NCBI RefSeq assembly: GCF_016026235.1
Contig: NZ_CP065613.1
Origin: Escherichia coli
Lineage (GTDB): Bacteria; Pseudomonadota; Gammaproteobacteria; Enterobacterales; Enterobacteriaceae
DNA: 64,000 nucleotides
Reading direction: 5' to 3' (one strand)
The position numbers and the translations under genes were made by a program. The notes beneath the pieces were generated by a model that saw nothing but the letters and a program-made list of their open reading frames with translations, had not been told where the DNA came from and ran no database searches. Below, piece by piece: positions 11,507-62,202 of the stretch; the first letter of the stretch is position 1, and each line of letters starts with the position of its first letter.

Positions 11507-11582
11507 TCCTCTGTAGTTCAGTCGGTAGAACGGCGGACTGTTAATCCGTATGTCACTGGTTCGAGTCCAGTCAGAGGAGCCA
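11507..11582 (+). tRNA. asnU: tRNA-Asn (GUU)
   Basis: Exact 76-nt tRNA-Asn sequence, identical to the asnW and asnV copies. Confidence 0.95.
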
Positions 11583-13914: not shown

Positions 13915-13990
13915 TCCTCTGTAGTTCAGTCGGTAGAACGGCGGACTGTTAATCCGTATGTCACTGGTTCGAGTCCAGTCAGAGGAGCCA
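13915..13990 (+). tRNA. asnV: tRNA-Asn (GUU)
   Basis: Exact 76-nt tRNA-Asn sequence. Confidence 0.95.
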
Positions 13991-37718: not shown

Positions 37719-38636
37719 ATGGTTCAGAAAATTTTGTCGGATAAGGTTATGAATGAAAGAACAAATGCGTATTACTCTTATTATCTTGGAGGGCGTAATA
37801 TCTCCGTACTGCCCCTTAATGTTTATGATCCCCCGGAACGTTTTATCGCTTACATAAAAAAAAACAGAGAAAATCTGAACATCACACTTTCAGATTTTGA
37901 ACTTGAACAAATAATTTCTGGTATGCGTCTGAAGGCCCTGGCCTTCCTGGTCCCCCTGGAAAAAATATCCTGGATCGCAGGCAGTGAACGCGCATGCTTA
38001 TTTTCCTGGTATCTGTTGATGCAGTTTATCCAGAATAACAGGGCAAAAATAAGCGCAGACTTGCTTCAAAAGAATAAACTGTATCTTAAAGAAGAGTATC
38101 TGGAAGGGAATGCCTTCCCGTCGGACTCATCGACACAGTTCAGACAAATACTCAGAGTTCTCGATATTCTTTCTGATAAGAATTTGCGGGATGAGTGGAT
38201 AATCCAGACCAAAGACAGATGGATACGGGCATTTAAATCAAAGAGTCCTTTCAGTTACCTCCTCCCGGAGAACGAACATGAATGCATATGGACATGGAAT
38301 TATTTGAAGGGAAAAAATATTGCACTGGAAAAACTGGCCAGTTTTCCTGATTCTGCTGATATTTACCACGCAATTCACCTTTCATTTGACATATGGGTTA
38401 CCTGTACACTCACCTCACCTGACGATATAAAAAATTTCAGAAACAGTTTCAATAAGGCCAAGGCGCAGCGCAAGTACAAAAAAATGCAGGAAGATAAAGT
38501 CAATGTACAGTTTTTTCTTGACGCAGAAACCAGGGCGCAGCTCAAAGAATTATCGAGGGTCAGAAGACTCAGTACCGGCGAAATGCTGCATGACCTGATT
38601 GTTGAAGAGTATAAAAGGTACCGACATTCCAGATAA
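37719..38636 (+). CDS. Hypothetical protein with a C-terminal ribbon-helix-helix-like motif
   Basis: 305-aa ORF, visibly AT-rich. C-terminus VNVQFFLDAETRAQLKELSRVRRLSTGEMLHDLIVEEY resembles an RHH (CopG/Arc-type) DNA-binding module. Confidence 0.5.
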   Translation: MVQKILSDKVMNERTNAYYSYYLGGRNISVLPLNVYDPPERFIAYIKKNRENLNITLSDFELEQIISGMRLKALAFLVPLEKISWIAGSERACLFSWYLLMQFIQNNRAKISADLLQKNKLYLKEEYLEGNAFPSDSSTQFRQILRVLDILSDKNLRDEWIIQTKDRWIRAFKSKSPFSYLLPENEHECIWTWNYLKGKNIALEKLASFPDSADIYHAIHLSFDIWVTCTLTSPDDIKNFRNSFNKAKAQRKYKKMQEDKVNVQFFLDAETRAQLKELSRVRRLSTGEMLHDLIVEEYKRYRHSR

Positions 38637-38905
38637 TTTCAGACATATATTATCTCCGTGAGTCCCCCGCCACCTTTCCGGTGTGCGGGGTTTTTGTCTT
38701 TTTTCACCGGGAATACATGTATGAATCCGTCTGATGCCATTGAGGCAATTGAAAAACCGCTCTCCTCCCTGCCTTACTCACTTTCCCGTCACATCCTGGA
38801 ACATCTGCGCAAACTCACCAGTCACGAACCCGTGATTGGCATTATGGGTAAAAGCGGGGCCGGTAAATCCTCACTCTGTAATGCACTGTTTCAGGGGGAG
38901 GTCAC

Positions 38906-40199
38906 CTGAGGGATCCCCAGAAAATTTAGTAAACCATTATCATATTGGTATACCGTTGCTGTAGAACTTTCAGCCCTGCGTCAAGTGACAGTGTGTTTAG
39001 TATGAGTGGAGAATGTCGAATCACATTCTCCGCCAGTTTTAATAACGAGATGACTCGCCTGTGCTTCACTGTATTTGCCTGATATTTATGATGTATCCCT
39101 TTGTTTTCCAGGCTGAAACCGCTTAACCACATAATGATACTGGCTAATGTTGCGATCAGACTCAATACCGTGACCCGCCCGGATGAATGACTGGCACCAA
39201 ACCGTAATCCAAATCCCCAGCGAGGATTTTTTTCATCCCTGAAATTTTGCTCAATTTGCATTCTACGGCTGTATAATTTCATTACCTGTTTTGGCGAGAA
39301 CTCAGTACTGTTTGTGAAAATAAACCATGGTGATTTCCCGGCAGTACGAGCTTTAGCCGTCACCGATGGTCTGGTTGCTCTTTCCTTCGAGCGTTTAAAT
39401 CAACGACCTTTAGGCTTACTTTTATAAAGATAAAAATGCCCTTCATGTTGTGCATTTTTATCTCGACCCAGCAGGCCTTCACCTAAATAAATTGCTGTCG
39501 TTGATGCTTTTGTGCCTGAGTCCGACACCTTTTCCCAGCCATTACCAACATTGTAATAATGATTGCCCAGTACCCGGCAAATATAGGTCCAGCCACGGGA
39601 GCGGAGCTGTTGGAACCATCGCCCCTGAAAACCGGCATCTGTAATAACAATGACATCAGTCCCGGGGGAAAAGCACTCAGCAAGCGATTCCAGAAAACGC
39701 TCATGTACATCTGCATTCGCTGTCTGTGATGATGGAACGACACAACTCATCAACGGTAAAGAACGCCCGTCACATGCCAGGCTTGCCCGCAAAAGCTGAA
39801 AACGAGAGGCATGATAAGCACTCCAGTCAATGAGTATCACAACACGAGACATTCCCCGCGTAATCTTTTGGGTAATTCGCTGAAAAATGGTGGAAACCTC
39901 ATTTTGCAAATGTCGATTCCCCAACAGTCGATCCACCCGCTTTATTTTGTTTTTAACTGATGCCGTACCGGTTAAATGACGCCCGATACTGGTAAGTGTG
40001 AGGGAAGCGCCATTTATTACAGCATTAGTTGCGTCAATCAGTGATTTTTGACGGTAAAGATGCAAAGGGGCCAGTATGTTGTTAAGGAAATTTTGGCATA
40101 ATGAACGTGCAGGCATAGTGGTGATCTCCTTGAAATTGTTAGCACAATCAATTAGATCACATCTCACTATGCCTGTCTTGTTTTCTGGGGATTCCTCAG
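38906..40199 (-). mobile_element. IS10-like IS4-family insertion sequence inside yeeP
   Basis: Terminal inverted repeats CTGAGGGATCCCCAGAAAA (38906-38924) and CTGAGGAATCCCCAGAAAA (reverse complement of 40181-40199). Flanking direct repeat GGGAGGTCAC at 38896-38905 and 40200-40209. Confidence 0.7.
38926..40116 (-). pseudogene. IS4-family (IS10-like) DDE transposase, in two frames
   Basis: Segments resemble the IS10 transposase (NKIKRVDRLLGNRHL; VIVITDAGFQGRWF; YSRRMQIEQNFRDEKNPRWGFGLRF) but are split between ORFs 39400-40116 and 38926-39363. Confidence 0.7.
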
Positions 40200-41009
40200 G
40201 GGAGGTCACCCCGGTCAGTGATGTTCACGCCGGCACCCGGGAAGTGCGGCGCTTCCGTCTGAGTGGCCACGGTCACAGCATGATTATCACTGACCTGCCC
40301 GGGGTGGGCGAGAGCCGGGACAGGGATGCAGAGTATGAAGCCCTGTACCGTGACATTCTGCCTGAACTTGACCTGGTACTGTGGCTGATTAAAGCCGATG
40401 ACCGTGCCCTGTCTGTGGATGAGTATTTCTGGCGACACATCCTGCACCGGGGACATCAGCAGGTGCTGTTTGTGGTGACGCAGGCCGACAAAACGGAGCC
40501 CTGCCATGAATGGGATATGGCCGGCATTCAGCCTTCTCCCGCACAGGCACAGAACATTCGTGAGAAAACAGATGCGGTATTCCGGCTGTTCCGGCCCGTA
40601 CATCCGGTTGTGGCCGTATCGGCCTGCACCGGCTGGGAACTGGATACGCTGGTCAGTGCGCTCATGACAGCGCTTCCCGACCATGCCGCCAGTCCCCTGA
40701 TGACCCGCCTGCAGGACGAGCTGCGCACGGAATCTGTCCGGTCTCAGGCCCGTGAACAGTTTACCGGTGCGGTGGACCGGATATTTGACACGGCGGAGAG
40801 CGTCTGTATTGCCTCTGTTGCACGCACGGTTCTGCGTGCCGTCCGTGACTCGGTGGTCTCTGTTGCCCGCGCTGTATGGAACTGGATTTTCTTCTGAACA
40901 GTCTGCCAGGGGAAATGCCTGATTACATTGCGTTAACCAACTGAAAACATGATACACCCCCCTCATATCCACCTCTTTCTCTTGCGTGACTGCCTTGCTG
41001 TTAATAGAA

Positions 41010-41060
41010 TAAAACGATCGATAAAACAGGTATCGATCGTTGATATCGATCGTTTATAGT
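41010..41060 (+). promoter_or_regulatory. flu (agn43) phase-variation switch: three GATC Dam sites in the OxyR-binding region
   Basis: GATC at 41016, 41035 and 41048, clustered about 220-250 bp upstream of the flu start codon, as described for the agn43 regulatory region. Confidence 0.6.
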
Positions 41061-43251
41061 GGTTAATGGCCTGCGAAAAGGCAGCTGAATCTCTTCATCA
41101 TGCAGAACGGAATTGCACACAACGGACTGATACTTCTCTGGCGGATGAGAGAGGGGAAGCATTTATGTCCGGGAAAAACCACTTTATCTGACCATGCTGT
41201 TTTGTACCTGCCGGTATCCACATTTGTGGGTACCGGCTTTTTTATTCACCCTCTGTAAGGAAAAGCTGATGAAACGACATCTGAACACCAGCTACAGGCT
41301 GGTATGGAATCACATTACGGGCACCCTGGTGGTGGCTTCCGAACTGGCGCGCTCACGGGGAAAACGCACCGGTGTGGCGGTTGCGCTGTCTCTTGCTGCT
41401 GTCACGTCAGTCCCGGTACTGGCTGCTGACACGGTCGTACAGGCGGGAGAAACCGTGAGCGGCGGAACACTGACAAATCATGACAACCAGATTGTCTTCG
41501 GTACGGCCAACGGAATGACCATCAGTACCGGTCTGGAGTATGGGCCGGATAACGAGGCCAATACCGGCGGACAATGGATACAAAATGGCGGTATCGCCAA
41601 CAACACTACTGTCACCGGTGGTGGTCTTCAGAGAGTGAATGCTGGAGGAAGCGTTTCAGACACGGTTATCAGTGCCGGAGGCGGACAGAGCCTTCAGGGG
41701 CAGGCAGTGAACACCACTCTGAACGGCGGTGAGCAGTGGGTACATGAAGGCGGGATTGCAACGGTTACCGTCATTAATGAGAAGGGCTGGCAGGCCGTCA
41801 AATCCGGCGCAATGGCAACCGACACGGTTGTGAATACCGGCGCGGAAGGGGGACCGGATGCAGAAAATGGTGATACCGGGCAGACCGTCTACGGAGATGC
41901 CGTACGCACCACCATCAATAAAAATGGTCGTCAGATTGTGGCTGCTGAAGGAACGGCAAATACCACTGTGGTTTATGCCGGCGGCGACCAGACTGTACAT
42001 GGTCACGCACTGGATACCACGCTGAATGGGGGGTACCAGTATGTGCACAACGGCGGTACGGCGTCTGGCACTGTTGTAAACAGTGACGGCTGGCAGATTA
42101 TCAAGGAAGGTGGTCTGGCGGATTTCACCACCGTTAACCAGAAAGGCAAACTGCAGGTGAACGCCGGTGGTACCGCCACACATGTCACCCTGAAACAGGG
42201 TGGAGCACTGGTTACCAGTACTGCGGCAACGGTTCTTGGCAGCAACCGTTTGGGCAATTTCACGGTGGAAAACGGTAAGGCTGACGGCGTTGTTCTGGAG
42301 TCCGGCGGTCGCCTAGATGTACTGGAAGGCCATTCAGCGCAGAAAACACGGGTGGATGACGGCGGAACCCTGGCAGTGTCTGCCGGTGGTAAGGCAACAG
42401 GTGTCACCATGACATCCGGTGGTGCCCTGATTGCAGACAGTGGTGCCACTGTTGAGGGGACCAATGCCAGCGGTAAGTTCAGTATTGATGGCATATCCGG
42501 TCAGGCCAGCGGCCTGCTGCTGGAAAATGGCGGCAGCTTTACGGTTAATGCCGGGGGACAGGCCAGCAACACCACTGTCGGACATCGTGGAACACTGATG
42601 CTGGCTGCCGGGGGAAGTCTGAGTGGCAGAACACAGCTCAGTAAAGGCGCCAGCATGGTACTGAATGGTGATGTGGTCAGTACCGGCGATATTGTTAACG
42701 CAGGGGAGATTTACTTTGACAATCAGACAACACCGGATGCCGTACTGAGCCGTGCTGTTGCAAAAGGCAACGCCCCGGTAACGTTCCATAAACTGACAAC
42801 CAGTAACCTCACCGGTCAGGGTGGCACCATCAATATGCGTGTTCGCCTTGATGGCAGCAATGCCTCTGACCAGCTGGTGATTAATGGTGGTCAGGCAACC
42901 GGCAAAACCTGGCTTGCGTTTACAAATGTCGGAAACAGCAACCTCGGGGTGGCAACCACCGGACAGGGTATCCGGGTTGTGGATGCACAGAATGGCGCCA
43001 CCACAGAAGAAGGTGCGTTTGCCCTGAGTCGCCCGCTTCAGGCCGGCGCCTTTAACTACACCCTGAACCGTGACAGCGATGAAGACTGGTACCTGCGCAG
43101 TGAAAATGCTTATCGTGCTGAAGTCCCCCTGTATACATCCATGTTGACACAGGCAATGGACTATGATGCGTATTACCGTGAAGGAGATCGGTGAGTAACA
43201 TCGATGGAGATCGGTTCGTGTCACTTTCACAGAACCGTTTTTAAATTACCT

Positions 43252-44001
43252 TCACTGATCTCCTTCGGTCAACGGAGATTGTATTTTCCGCATTGATTCT
43301 CCTTTAAGTTCAATCTTGATACTGCCATGAACCAGTCGATCTAGGATGGCATCCGCATGTGTGGAGTCTCCGATCATTTTGTACCAGTTTTCCACCGGCA
43401 ACTGGCTCACTACGATGATTGAGCCTCGTTGGTACATCAGATCCACTATTTCCAGCAGGTCGCTACGCTGTTCTGATGAGAGAGGTTCCAGCCCCCAGTC
43501 ATCCAGAAGCAGCAGATCGCTATTATTCAGCCTAGTCAAAAGTTTGCTGTATCTTCCATCAGCATGCCCCTGATAGCACTGTTCCATCAGCGCTTTAAGG
43601 CGATAATAGTAGACCTTGTATCCCTGTCGGCAGGCATTATGACCAAGTGCACATGCCAGGAACGTTTTACCGCTGCCGGTGGCCCCGGTCAGTAAAATAT
43701 TTTGTTTCAGGGTTAACCAGTTTCCCTGACTGAGTGAACGGATGAGGGCCCTGTCCAGCCCTCTATTGTTACGATAATCCAGCTTTGATAACTCAGCATT
43801 AAGTCTGAACCGTGCATGTTTGATCAGACGCTCTGCCTTCCTGTTTTCACGGCAGGTTAGTTCTTCTGCTGTCAGTAATGACAGGCGTTCTTCGAAGCCC
43901 AGCTCCTGGTATGTGCCCGGCTGAGCAAGTTGCTTTTTAAGCGCATCACGGAAGCCGGTGAGTTTAAGTGCGGTCAGTTGTTCGTAAAGATGATTCATCA
44001 T
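43252..44001 (-). CDS. istB: IS21-family helper ATPase IstB
   Basis: Walker A GATGSGKT; 249 aa. Confidence 0.8.
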   Translation of the reverse strand: MMNHLYEQLTALKLTGFRDALKKQLAQPGTYQELGFEERLSLLTAEELTCRENRKAERLIKHARFRLNAELSKLDYRNNRGLDRALIRSLSQGNWLTLKQNILLTGATGSGKTFLACALGHNACRQGYKVYYYRLKALMEQCYQGHADGRYSKLLTRLNNSDLLLLDDWGLEPLSSEQRSDLLEIVDLMYQRGSIIVVSQLPVENWYKMIGDSTHADAILDRLVHGSIKIELKGESMRKIQSPLTEGDQ

Positions 44002-44012
44002 TGGATCCCGTA

Positions 44013-45533
44013 TCAGTGGTAATACTCACTGCCGCGTACGTTTTCGTGTTCCATCGTGGATAACAGATCTGGTTTTGGATCCTGAACAGGTTGTTTATCC
44101 AGACCTTTTTCCAGGATCGATTTAATACCTGACAGACGCCATACCTTTGTTTTCAGAGCTCTTGCACATGCTGCATTAAGTCTGGCTTTACTGTATTTTT
44201 TATGAAGGTTCAGGAGTCCAAGGCAGAAGCGATAGCTTTGTTCCGGATGTGGACGAGAGTTCAGTATATGAAGCACATAACTATGAGTTTCACTGCCTAT
44301 GTGCCCCGCCCATTCCAGAAGACGCTCTGGCGTCCAGGTGGCATGCTGTCGATGAGCTTCAGGCATGTGCTCGTTGCGGGTACTGTAGCCATAAGTACGC
44401 TTGCGCGGGTGCACAGCAACCTCCTGCCCCTGATTGAAGAGTCTTACCAGTTCTCCGGAGATCCATGCTTCCAGTTGCTGGCCTAACAGCGAACATGGAA
44501 CCGAGTAGTAATGTTTGTCGATTTCCACGTGGTAATCGGCATGAACTCTGACTTTCTTCACCAGGGTGTAACTGTAACTGGCTTCAGGAAGAGGCTTCAG
44601 TGCGGGTTTATCAAGCTGGATGAAGAGTTCTGCACGTGAATAACCCAACTTCTGCATTATTTTGTTATTCAGTCTTTCCAGCAACTCCCGAATGCGCTGA
44701 TTAAGCGATGCAAGGCTGTAGAAGATCTCATGCCTGATTCGGGCCATGATCCAGCGTTCAACAACCTGAACGCCAACTTCAGCTTTGGCTTTATCTTTCG
44801 GTTTACGTGGCCGCGCAGGCAAAACTGCGACATTATAATGCTCAAGCATCTGCTGGTAGGTAGGGTTAACGTCAGGATCATACTTACATGCCCTGGATGT
44901 GGCGCTTTTCAGATTGTCCGGAACAACAAGTTCAGGAACGCCACCCAACCACTGGAAGCAGCGAACATGACTCATCACCCAGTCTTCAAGCTGCTGAGAC
45001 CAGGTGGCCTCTGCCCATGTGTAACTTGATGCCCCGAGAACAGCTACGATGACCTGAGCAGTTCTTATTTCTCCGGTCTCAGGGTCGGTAACGCCAACGG
45101 TAGGTCCACAGTAATCAACGAAAAGTTTTTCGCCAGCTTTATGTACCTGACGCATTGATGGTGAAGTGGTTTTGAGCCATTCACGGTACATCCGGCAGTA
45201 ATGGTTATAGCTGTAAAAACCGCCTGGATTACGCTCACAGTATTCTTCCCAGAGTAGCTGCAGCGTCACGCATTTATTACGCAGTTCCCAGTGTACTGTA
45301 GCCCAGTCAGGCAGAGAGTGCTTCTTCATCTTAACCTGGGTCTGAAGGAACGCATGTTTTAGTTTTGTATCATCCCATCCTGTAGGTAAGGGCCACTGCT
45401 TTATGCCAAGTTGAGCCGCCCGATTAGCATATCTGGATACAACGGAAGGGGAGATTGCAAGACTACGACCAATTTGTCGATGGCTGAGTCCAACACCGTA
45501 TTTAAGCCTAAGAATTTCTTTAAGTTTTCTCAT
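44013..45533 (-). CDS. istA: IS21-family transposase IstA
   Basis: HTH plus DDE domain; about 50% similar to the IstA of copy 1. Confidence 0.8.
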   Translation of the reverse strand: MRKLKEILRLKYGVGLSHRQIGRSLAISPSVVSRYANRAAQLGIKQWPLPTGWDDTKLKHAFLQTQVKMKKHSLPDWATVHWELRNKCVTLQLLWEEYCERNPGGFYSYNHYCRMYREWLKTTSPSMRQVHKAGEKLFVDYCGPTVGVTDPETGEIRTAQVIVAVLGASSYTWAEATWSQQLEDWVMSHVRCFQWLGGVPELVVPDNLKSATSRACKYDPDVNPTYQQMLEHYNVAVLPARPRKPKDKAKAEVGVQVVERWIMARIRHEIFYSLASLNQRIRELLERLNNKIMQKLGYSRAELFIQLDKPALKPLPEASYSYTLVKKVRVHADYHVEIDKHYYSVPCSLLGQQLEAWISGELVRLFNQGQEVAVHPRKRTYGYSTRNEHMPEAHRQHATWTPERLLEWAGHIGSETHSYVLHILNSRPHPEQSYRFCLGLLNLHKKYSKARLNAACARALKTKVWRLSGIKSILEKGLDKQPVQDPKPDLLSTMEHENVRGSEYYH

Positions 45534-46724
45534 AGAAATTGGAACTGTTGGCATAGGTATCCTTTACCGGAATGGCAAAAGATACAGATCAACACACCTG
45601 TGAAGTTCCAATAACATTGATGGAGATCACTGAATAACAAAATGAGTCAAAAGTGATCTCCATCGATGTTATTCAGCGATCTGTTCAAATGTTATTACCC
45701 GATCTCGATGGAAGTTATTGAGTGATCTCCTTTCATGAAAATACGCACTATGACCGGATTCTGGCAGGCTCCCGCAGCCATCAGACCGGTGTAAACGGTG
45801 AAAATAACAGCGTCCGTCTCAGCATTCAGGGCGGTCATCTCGGTCACGATAACAACGGCGGTATTGCCCGTGGAGCCACGCCGGAAAGCAGCGGCAGCTA
45901 TGGCTTCGTCCGTCTGGAGGGTGACCTGCTGAGAACAGAGGTTGCCGGTATGTCTCTGACGACAGGGGTGTATGGTGCCGCAGGCCATTCTTCCGTTGAT
46001 GTTAAGGATGATGACGGTTCCCGCGCCGGCACGGTCCGGGATGATGCCGGCAGCCTGGGCGGATACCTGAATCTGACACACACGTCCTCCGGCCTGTGGG
46101 CTGACATTGTGGCACAGGGAACCCGCCACAGCATGAAAGCGTCATCGGACAATAACGACTTCCGCGCCCGGGGCTGGGGCTGGCTGGGCTCACTGGAAAC
46201 CGGTCTGCCCTTCAGTATCACTGACAACCTGATGCTGGAGCCACAACTGCAGTACACCTGGCAGGGGCTCTCCCTGGATGACGGCCAGGATAACGCCGGT
46301 TATGTGAAGTTCGGGCATGGCAGTACACAACATGTGCGTGCCGGTTTCCGTCTGGGCAGCCACAACGATATGACCTTTGGTGAAGGCACCTCATCCCGTG
46401 ACACCCTGCGCGACAGTACAAAACACGGTGTGAGTGAACTGCCTGTGAACTGGTGGGTACAGCCTTCTGTTATCCGCACTTTCAGCTCCCGGGGTGACAT
46501 GAGCATGGGTACAGCCGCCGCCGGCAGTAACATGACGTTCTCACCGTCCCGGAATGGCACGTCACTGGACCTGCAGGCCGGACTGGAAGCCCGTGTCCGG
46601 GAAAATATCACCCTGGGCGTTCAGGCCGGTTATGCCCACAGCGTCAGCGGCAGCAGCGCTGAAGGTTATAACGGTCAGGCCACGCTGAATGTGACTTTCT
46701 GATAATCAGGTCACTCTCCTTCAG

Positions 46725-59073: not shown

Positions 59074-59339
59074 GGTCATTCTCCTTTACGGTGATAACCG
59101 TCGCGTAAGCAAAAAATTGCCCCATTTTTTTGGATTCCTCAGCGACAACAACTGTCGATTTTTAGTAAATATCTATCCGGTACGAAGCCCGGCCTCTTGG
59201 TATGAATGATTGGTTTGAAGCAAAAAATAACCGACGCTGATGAAACGTCGGTTTTTAGTCATTTTTTGACAGCGGCGCATTGTGCCTAAATGGGGGGGAA
59301 ATGACAAGAGAATGAGAGGCTTGTCATAATAATTTTTCT

Positions 59340-62006: not shown

Positions 62007-62057
62007 ATGACACGCGTTCAATTTAAACACCACCATCATCACCATCATCCTGACTAG
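62007..62057 (+). CDS. hisL: his operon leader peptide
   Basis: ATG ACA CGC GTT CAA TTT AAA followed by seven consecutive His codons, CCT GAC TAG (MTRVQFKHHHHHHHPD). Confidence 0.9.
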   Translation: MTRVQFKHHHHHHHPD

Positions 62058-62119
62058 TCTTTCAGGCGATGTGTGCTGGAAGACATTCAGATCTTCCAGT
62101 GGTGCATGAACGCATGAGA

Positions 62120-62154
62120 AAGCCCCCGGAAGATCACCTTCCGGGGGCTTTTTT
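62120..62154 (+). terminator. his attenuator terminator
   Basis: agcccccggaagatcaccttccgggggct followed by tttttt, between hisL and hisG. Confidence 0.8.
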
Positions 62155-62202
62155 ATTGCGCGGTTGATAACGGTTCAGACAGGTTTAAAGAGGAATAACA
62201 AA

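Follow-up and report, generated by a model that had tools for sequence, protein, structure and literature searches.

A nonsense allele shared by several ISEc60 copies, one of them inserted in a yeeP-type GTPase gene of Escherichia coli

IS10 (Tn10) inserts at targets with the consensus NGCTNAGCN, and the GATC asymmetry between its two ends underlies its control by Dam methylation. Transposases of the IS10 type act mainly in cis, as established for IS10 and IS50. The IS4 family is defined by the YREK signature, Y-(2)-R-(3)-E-(6)-K, and shows target duplications of about 10 bp (PMC2266710). For the IS10 subgroup, a size of 1200-1350 bp, 5'-CT ends and 9-bp repeats are given (PMC2266710 Table 1). 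The element described here lies in a 64,000-nucleotide stretch of E. coli DNA, which was analysed as a whole and is called the window below. A first annotation made from the letters of the window (the sequence-only reading) had described a GTPase gene, yeeP, split by an IS10-like element with an intact target duplication and a decayed transposase. The features of the locus are collected in Table 1.

Table 1. Features of the ISEc60 insertion and of the interrupted gene (positions in the window)
Feature	Position	Strand	Remark
yeeP-type GTPase, 5' fragment	38721..38905	+	codons 1-61 and most of 62, P-loop GKSGAGKS included
Target site duplication, left copy, GGGAGGTCAC	38896..38905		abuts element end
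ISEc60	38906..40199	-	2 substitutions relative to intact copies, 99.85% identity
Terminal inverted repeat, transposase-distal end (equivalent of IS10 inside end)	38906..38924	+	GATC at 38912
Transposase reading frame	38926..40116	-	396 codons and stop when intact; here interrupted in frame at codon 239
Synonymous substitution	39207	-	Leu304 CTA>TTA; plus strand A instead of G
Premature TGA	39400..39402	-	Arg239 AGA>TGA; plus strand 39402 A instead of T
Transposase-leader hairpin	40110..40175	-	perfect 11-nt arms and inner stem
Terminal inverted repeat, transposase-start end (equivalent of IS10 outside end)	40181..40199	-	without GATC
Target site duplication, right copy, GGGAGGTCAC	40200..40209		abuts element end
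yeeP-type GTPase, 3' fragment	40210..40897	+	codons 63-290 and stop

Identity, ends and target site of the element

By its sequence, the mobile element, 1294 bp long with the transposase on the minus strand, is ISEc60 (IS4 family, IS10 subgroup), an insertion sequence already catalogued under that name. A megablast search of 5,426 complete E. coli genomes found full-length 1294-bp copies with 98.6 to 99.8% identity, which RefSeq labels "IS4-like element ISEc60 family transposase". Against the copies annotated as ISEc60, the window copy is identical at 1292 of 1294 positions and at both ends; copies of the same length and with the same ends are found on the chromosome and on a plasmid of E. coli CFSAN029787, and in FDAARGOS_943. 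The two ends read CTGAGGGATCCCCAGAAAA (transposase-distal) and CTGAGGAATCCCCAGAAAA (transposase-start, reverse-complemented) and match at 18 of 19 positions. The 64-kb window contains this inverted-repeat pattern two times, whereas 0.02 occurrences would be expected by chance. The description of a 1.29-kb IS4-family element with 19-bp inverted repeats was thus borne out, and the length and the CTGAGG... termini at both ends are those of the IS10 subgroup.

Each of the three reference ISEc60 copies that were retrieved has one 1191-nt transposase gene encoding 396 aa (e.g., WP_001111632.1). A single transposase ORF without programmed frameshift is the IS4-family arrangement, and intact ISEc60 shows it. 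The intact protein matches NCBIfam transpos_IS4_2 with 360 bits (cut-off 152) as well as Pfam DDE_Tnp_1, and it carries the catalytic residues D97, D160 and E289 together with the motif Y282/R285/E289/K296. By analogy with IS10 and IS50, ISEc60 would be a cut-and-paste DDE element.

The duplication made by ISEc60 is exactly 10 bp at 16 insertion sites among the retrieved loci, and no site with 9 bp, the subgroup value, was found among the 16. The base preceding the duplication is G at 14 of the sites and the base following it is C at 15; the preceding base is T or A at two sites (L005 and L035) and the following base is T at a third (L014). Because the flanking G or C is missing at these three sites, the terminal C and G must be part of the element, which leaves a duplication of 10 bp. 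An apparent 12-bp repeat at yeeP (38895-38906 / 40199-40210) is explained by the element's terminal C and G being equal to the bases on either side of the target. The same three sites also ruled out element ends T...A with a 12-bp duplication. The sequence-only reading had left the duplication at 10 to 12 bp, with 9 bp to be checked: its intact direct repeat and the 10-bp value stand, and both 12 bp and 9 bp fall away.

The ISEc60 sites share the palindromic consensus cG/GGGAAATCCC/Cg, where the slashes enclose the duplicated part. Several are terminator-like, the target forming the loop of a hairpin that has a GC stem and a T run behind it. The yeeP target, caggGGGAGGTCACcccg, is a moderate match to the consensus and lies within a coding region; it was shown to fit the strong preference of ISEc60 for the palindromic target G/GGGAAATCCC/C.

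A very stable hairpin is predicted in the transposase leader (-38 to -41 kcal/mol; z about -5.5 for each of the two strands). The GGAG ribosome-binding site and the ATG at 40114-40116 are sequestered in it, and the hairpin could block the translation of read-through transcripts or be itself an antisense RNA. No Rfam match to the IS10 antisense RNA (RNA-OUT) was found at E<=1 within 38500-41300, and a sigma-70 promoter scan flagged nothing in the leader. Two GATC sites (40123 and 40155) lie within the hairpin. In the element termini GATC is found in the distal end, and the proximal end reads AATC, so that the window copy has GATC at one end only and also near the transposase start. A candidate extended -10 (TGaTCTAAT), read by eye from the letters, overlaps the GATC at 40155.

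The interrupted gene and the transposase defect

ISEc60 was shown to have entered codon 62 of the GTPase gene, just past the P-loop, by simple transposition. The 5' part of the gene now ends at a TGA supplied by the IS terminus and encodes a 62-aa product, and gene callers extend the 3' part to an ATG at 40169 within the IS, which gives a 242-aa hybrid ORF. Removal of 1304 bp (the element and one repeat) joins the two parts into an 873-nt ORF of 290 aa. This restored ORF has no nucleotide difference from that of a "GTPase family protein" (WP_001407301.1) of strain MSHS 472, which confirms a split yeeP gene, and its product has a Pfam MMR_HSR1 GTPase domain (55 bits). The simple insertion with an intact target duplication proposed earlier was likewise supported by an uninterrupted site, 1304 bp shorter, in the best-matching complete genomes. 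The yeeP::ISEc60 insertion was absent from all 5,426 complete E. coli genomes, the closest (FDAARGOS_943) included. The gene is located upstream of isrC (Rfam RF00124, 41014-41250), followed by flu/Ag43, and it occupies the yeeP position of a CP4-44-like island. The host has lost an accessory prophage GTPase, and no further consequence follows. The surrounding prophage island is decaying, with at least one further IS disruption.

Searching for the 62-aa truncated product of yeeP by exact match gave 463 blocks, a result rejected as proof of a widespread insertion, since requiring a length of exactly 62 residues creates a selection effect. Among the eight places listed, the IS is present in one only (L006); the other seven matches are contigs that stop at ...GGTCACCC, which is uninterrupted sequence.

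The transposase had been read as split between two frames. Both minus-strand ORFs (38926-39363 and 39400-40209) share one reading frame, and comparison of the window copy with intact copies of the same length revealed two substitutions, at 39402 and 39207, and no indel. Consequently there is no frameshift to be located by such a comparison. The frame is unchanged save for one TGA, and the protein encoded is identical to WP_001111632.1 apart from the stop at codon 239. In element coordinates the nonsense substitution at 39402 is T497A and the synonymous one at 39207 is G302A. The truncated product of 238 residues keeps D97 and D160 and has lost E289 and the YREK motif; from IS4-family chemistry, the yeeP copy would therefore make no complete transposase.

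Origin of the stop codon

Over 8189 bp, the window has the same sequence as contig UGFA01000005.1 of assembly GCA_900449985.1. A search for exact matches to the 238-aa product found five places, all in GCA_900449985.1 and in no other assembly of the collection: motB/motA, yeeP, the queD side, nupC/yfeA and glk/PTS. A sixth copy with T497A is located in lhr. At least six ISEc60 copies of this assembly thus carry the stop codon, and at least one is intact. All six differ from canonical ISEc60 by T497A and lie at different sites, with a perfect 10-bp duplication at five. G302A is private to the yeeP copy and was seen in no other ISEc60 copy examined. The intact copy (L063), beside the fec genes, has 497T and a copy-specific G1173A; the identical allele is present at the same site in a sister assembly, GCA_031665325.1, and this agreement indicates that both assemblies resolve copy-specific variants. 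Another ISEc60 copy adjoins a gene for the 50-aa HokC, a protein that is universal in E. coli and uninformative as a look-up query.

Look-up of the hybrid IS-yeeP ORF found the same yeeP insertion in three further assemblies. It was shown in this way that the insertion is older than the strain and occurs in no fewer than three additional assemblies of this E. coli clone. GCA_031665325.1 is the one sister assembly in which the whole element at yeeP can be read. Its yeeP copy is 100% canonical ISEc60 with a 396-aa transposase, and over the 5.7 kb of the yeeP locus it differs from GCA_900449985.1 by the two IS substitutions only. The insertions at yeeP, glk, nupC and the queD side are all intact in GCA_031665325.1, with 497T, and all four have the same orientation in both assemblies. 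At the queD side the flanks of the copy do not match each other and are the same in both assemblies; the shared mismatch argues for common descent and against repeated insertion. A 14-bp indel at the queD-side site is the one difference in the flanks compared at the four sites. About 17 kb of flanks were compared between the two assemblies and gave one SNP and one indel. The two assemblies are different isolates of one clone. The motA insertion is common to GCA_001907395.1 and four similar contigs; it was not found in GCA_031665325.1, and it was not found in any complete genome, the closest (FDAARGOS_943) included. The lhr insertion, with the stop codon and a fresh duplication, is on record in GCA_900449985.1 only.

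We consider it very probable that the locus results from a simple insertion of ISEc60 with a 10-bp duplication, and that the yeeP copy is a non-autonomous one carrying a nonsense allele that spread among the copies of the strain. The comparison shows that ISEc60 was intact when it entered yeeP in one of the clone's ancestors. T497A would have arisen once and would have spread among the resident copies by homologous recombination (gene conversion). As intact copies fill four of the sites in the sister assembly, the copies at these four sites at least predate the mutation and must have been converted. The yeeP copy is more likely a recipient than the founder, because none of the other copies has G302A, which is 195 bp away from the stop. 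The entry of one SNP into at least four pre-existing copies, with about 17 kb of flanks nearly unchanged, needs a high conversion rate or selection. Mobilisation in trans of an already defective copy possibly adds to the spread and may account for the lhr insertion; alternatively, an intact copy may have arrived in lhr and been converted later. Movement of a defective copy and later conversion are equally good accounts of the lhr copy.

An alternative that we regard as rather unlikely is that the nonsense element is a non-autonomous derivative multiplied by transposition with transposase from an intact copy, the yeeP copy being one of its progeny or siblings. The six distinct sites with five perfect duplications would be expected from such multiplication, the lhr insertion is private to GCA_900449985.1 and has the stop codon, and an intact transposase donor exists. 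However, in the sister assembly the copies at yeeP, glk, nupC and the queD side are intact and identically oriented, and at the queD side the mismatched flanks are shared; these copies were thus in place before the mutation and must have been converted, not newly inserted. The mainly cis action of IS10-type transposases also speaks against multiplication in trans. Re-insertion of defective copies at the same hot spots was ruled out by the common orientation at four sites and by the same non-matching flanks at the queD side.

It is improbable that an active copy inserted into yeeP, mutated in place and is now an immobile relic, which is close to what the sequence-only reading had proposed. An intact duplication and both ends beside a broken transposase would fit such a history, as would the extra private synonymous SNP at 39207 and the intact ancestral yeeP copy of the sister assembly. 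Against it, at least five other copies in GCA_900449985.1 have the identical T>A, and these copies lack G302A, so the yeeP copy is unlikely to have been their donor. Nor is immobility implied by a copy with intact ends in a genome that has an intact copy. The claim that the element has since been immobilised is therefore not upheld, given the same substitution in at least five other copies, the intact yeeP copy of the sister and an available source of intact transposase. A single intact transposase ORF, named beforehand as evidence against a decayed transposase, is present at yeeP in GCA_031665325.1 but absent there from GCA_900449985.1.

A stop codon created as an assembly or consensus artefact of the PacBio-era GCA_900449985.1, with the true element intact, is very improbable: GCA_031665325.1 has T at all four shared sites with identical flanks and the truncated product is in no other assembly, but GCA_900449985.1 itself has 497T in the fec-side copy (L063) together with a copy-specific SNP confirmed by the sister, assemblies with neighbouring accessions (GCA_9004..., presumably the NCTC long-read project) show 497T in ISEc60, the yeeP copy retains its private SNP so that copies were not homogenised, and the change is a substitution outside any homopolymer, which is not a typical long-read error.

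Under the preferred history of insertion followed by conversion, the yeeP copy is non-autonomous and not demonstrably immobile, since its ends and duplication are intact and an intact copy is present in the same genome. That intact copy could serve as a source of transposase in trans. If ISEc60 transposase acts mainly in cis like others of the IS10 type, movement of the yeeP copy would probably be inefficient.

We give only a small chance to the further idea that the stop-codon form of ISEc60 out-multiplied or overwrote the intact form in this strain, being favoured or still active. Three routes to a favoured variant are conceivable. It might be mobilised efficiently in trans; residues 1-238 might act as a dominant-negative brake on transposition; or a split but active transposase might be rebuilt from the N-terminal fragment and a C-terminal one translated on its own. 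The in-frame ORF 38926-39363 starts with GTG at codon 252, and the stop codon aligns with the basic linker region of the IS10A transposase. Kwon, Chalmers and Kleckner reportedly found in 1995 that proteolytic fragments of IS10 transposase, about residues 1-246 and 256-402, rebuild activity.

Significance and comparison with known systems

The insertion itself is ordinary: the element is known, and so is this kind of location. The analysis corrects its annotation to ISEc60 with a 10-bp duplication and a nonsense codon in place of a frameshift, and it describes an IS10-subgroup element with 10-bp duplications and a strongly palindromic, often terminator-like target. It also describes one inactivating allele in most ISEc60 copies of one strain, with the same insertions intact in a sister strain. 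Should read-level data bear out the allele pattern, it would offer a clean natural case for measuring gene conversion between IS copies, or mobilisation in trans, over a short evolutionary time.

The resemblance to IS10 suggested by the sequence-only reading holds at the subgroup level (ends, size and a transposase identity of 36%), but the element is ISEc60 and not IS10. The ends of IS10/IS10A (Tn10) start with CTGA.GRATCCCC as those of ISEc60 do, and a plasmid copy of IS10A (L056) has exactly the same GATC/AATC asymmetry between its ends. IS10 is 1328 bp and ISEc60 1294 bp long, and both have a single transposase ORF. The transposases of IS10A and ISVsa5 share 36% amino acid identity with that of ISEc60 over 93% of the length; the DDE and YREK residues of IS10A and ISEc60 align, and both elements prefer palindromic targets. 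The target consensus of ISEc60 is GGGAAATCCC-like, unlike that of IS10, and its duplication is 10 bp in contrast to the 9 bp given for the IS10 subgroup (PMC2266710 Table 1). The closest differently named relative found is ISSfl1 of Shigella flexneri, a distinct element whose transposase is 51.6% identical over the full length.

The interrupted gene is comparable to yeeP of E. coli K-12, the GTPase pseudogene of the cryptic prophage CP4-44, and the order GTPase-isrC-flu is the same in K-12 and in the window. K-12 yeeP is, we assume, a pseudogene for other reasons. The yeeP-type gene of the window differs from it in being a full 290-aa ORF but for the IS.

Target choice and copies of ISEc60

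The 16 insertion sites found in the comparison loci L001-L040 show that ISEc60 strongly prefers a palindromic target, with GGGAAATCCC preceded by cG and followed by Cg. Many of these sites are GC-rich hairpin loops followed by T runs and resemble terminators. Such a preference for terminator-like hairpin loops would explain why most ISEc60 copies are intergenic. In the source strain (GCA_900449985.1), ISEc60 also disrupts motA and lhr. The motA insertion (loci L014/L053) is common to GCA_001907395.1 and four similar contigs, and the lhr insertion (L040/L055) is private. The flanks of the queD-side copy (L016/L026) and of the copy at locus L024 do not match, suggesting IS-mediated rearrangements or deletions.

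Tandem dimers of ISEc60 with a spacer of exactly 10 bp were found in three loci (L002:197-2794; L020:177-2774 and L021). Plasmid pCFSAN029787_01 carries the arrangement GGTAAATCCC-IS-GGTAAATCCC-IS-GGTAAATCCC, meaning that one target was struck twice. The same IS-GGTAAATCCC-IS unit is present in GCA_031665585.1 but is bordered by another duplication, GGAAAATCCC; this looks like movement of the whole dimer as a single composite unit.

Damaged copies were detected in other GCA_9004... assemblies. In three plasmid-like contigs (L033, L036 and L037) ISEc60 is itself disrupted near element position 534-546 or 528-536. The inserted element in L033 and L036 encodes an IS4-type transposase (Nterm_IS4 domain), and the adjoining gene in L037 is IS1-type. 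Two further copies (L034 and L035) carry single-base indels within the transposase gene, which may be real or consensus errors.

Contig ends at yeeP

The 62-aa truncated YeeP product was used in an exact look-up. Seven of the eight places shown (L007-L013) are contigs ending at ...GGGGAGGTCACCC. These ends lie at most 1 base from the ISEc60 insertion point, yet the sequence there is uninterrupted. The upstream contexts vary and include aerobactin, restriction-modification or tellurite genes. The contig ends probably reflect a repeat boundary among yeeP paralogues combined with a selection effect of the 62-aa query. The 305-aa ORF next to yeeP gave no match in Pfam or NCBIfam. Other genomes of E. 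coli conserve it beside their GTPase gene and annotate it as hypothetical.

The flu region and chromosomal setting

The flu/Ag43 autotransporter gene is also disrupted, by an IS21-family element. The GATC region upstream of flu, the Dam/OxyR phase-variation switch with its TATCGATCGTT units, is intact; the ISEc60 insertion lies approximately 800 bp upstream of it. On the K-12 map of the E. coli chromosome, the three tRNA-Asn genes, STnc240 and the his leader fit the asnT/W/U-CP4-44-his region.

Features of the window around yeeP and flu and in the wider region
Feature	Position	Strand	Remark
tRNA-Asn (GTT)	9683-9758	minus	
tRNA-Asn (GTT)	11507-11582	plus	
tRNA-Asn (GTT)	13915-13990	plus	
305-aa ORF	37719-38636		directly upstream of yeeP
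Repeated TATCGATCGTT units	41012-41056		enclose three GATC sites (41016, 41035, 41048)
isrC sRNA	41014-41250		Rfam RF00124 'IS102', 76.7 bits; upstream region of flu
Disrupted flu/Ag43	41194-46702		
Ag43 N-terminal ORF	end at 43194		within 41194-46702
IS21-family istB	43252-44001	minus	
IS21-family istA	44013-45554	minus	
Ag43 C-terminal part resuming	45722-46702		NCBIfam auto_Ag43 positions 630-948
STnc240 sRNA and his operon leader	59220-59294; 62033-62156
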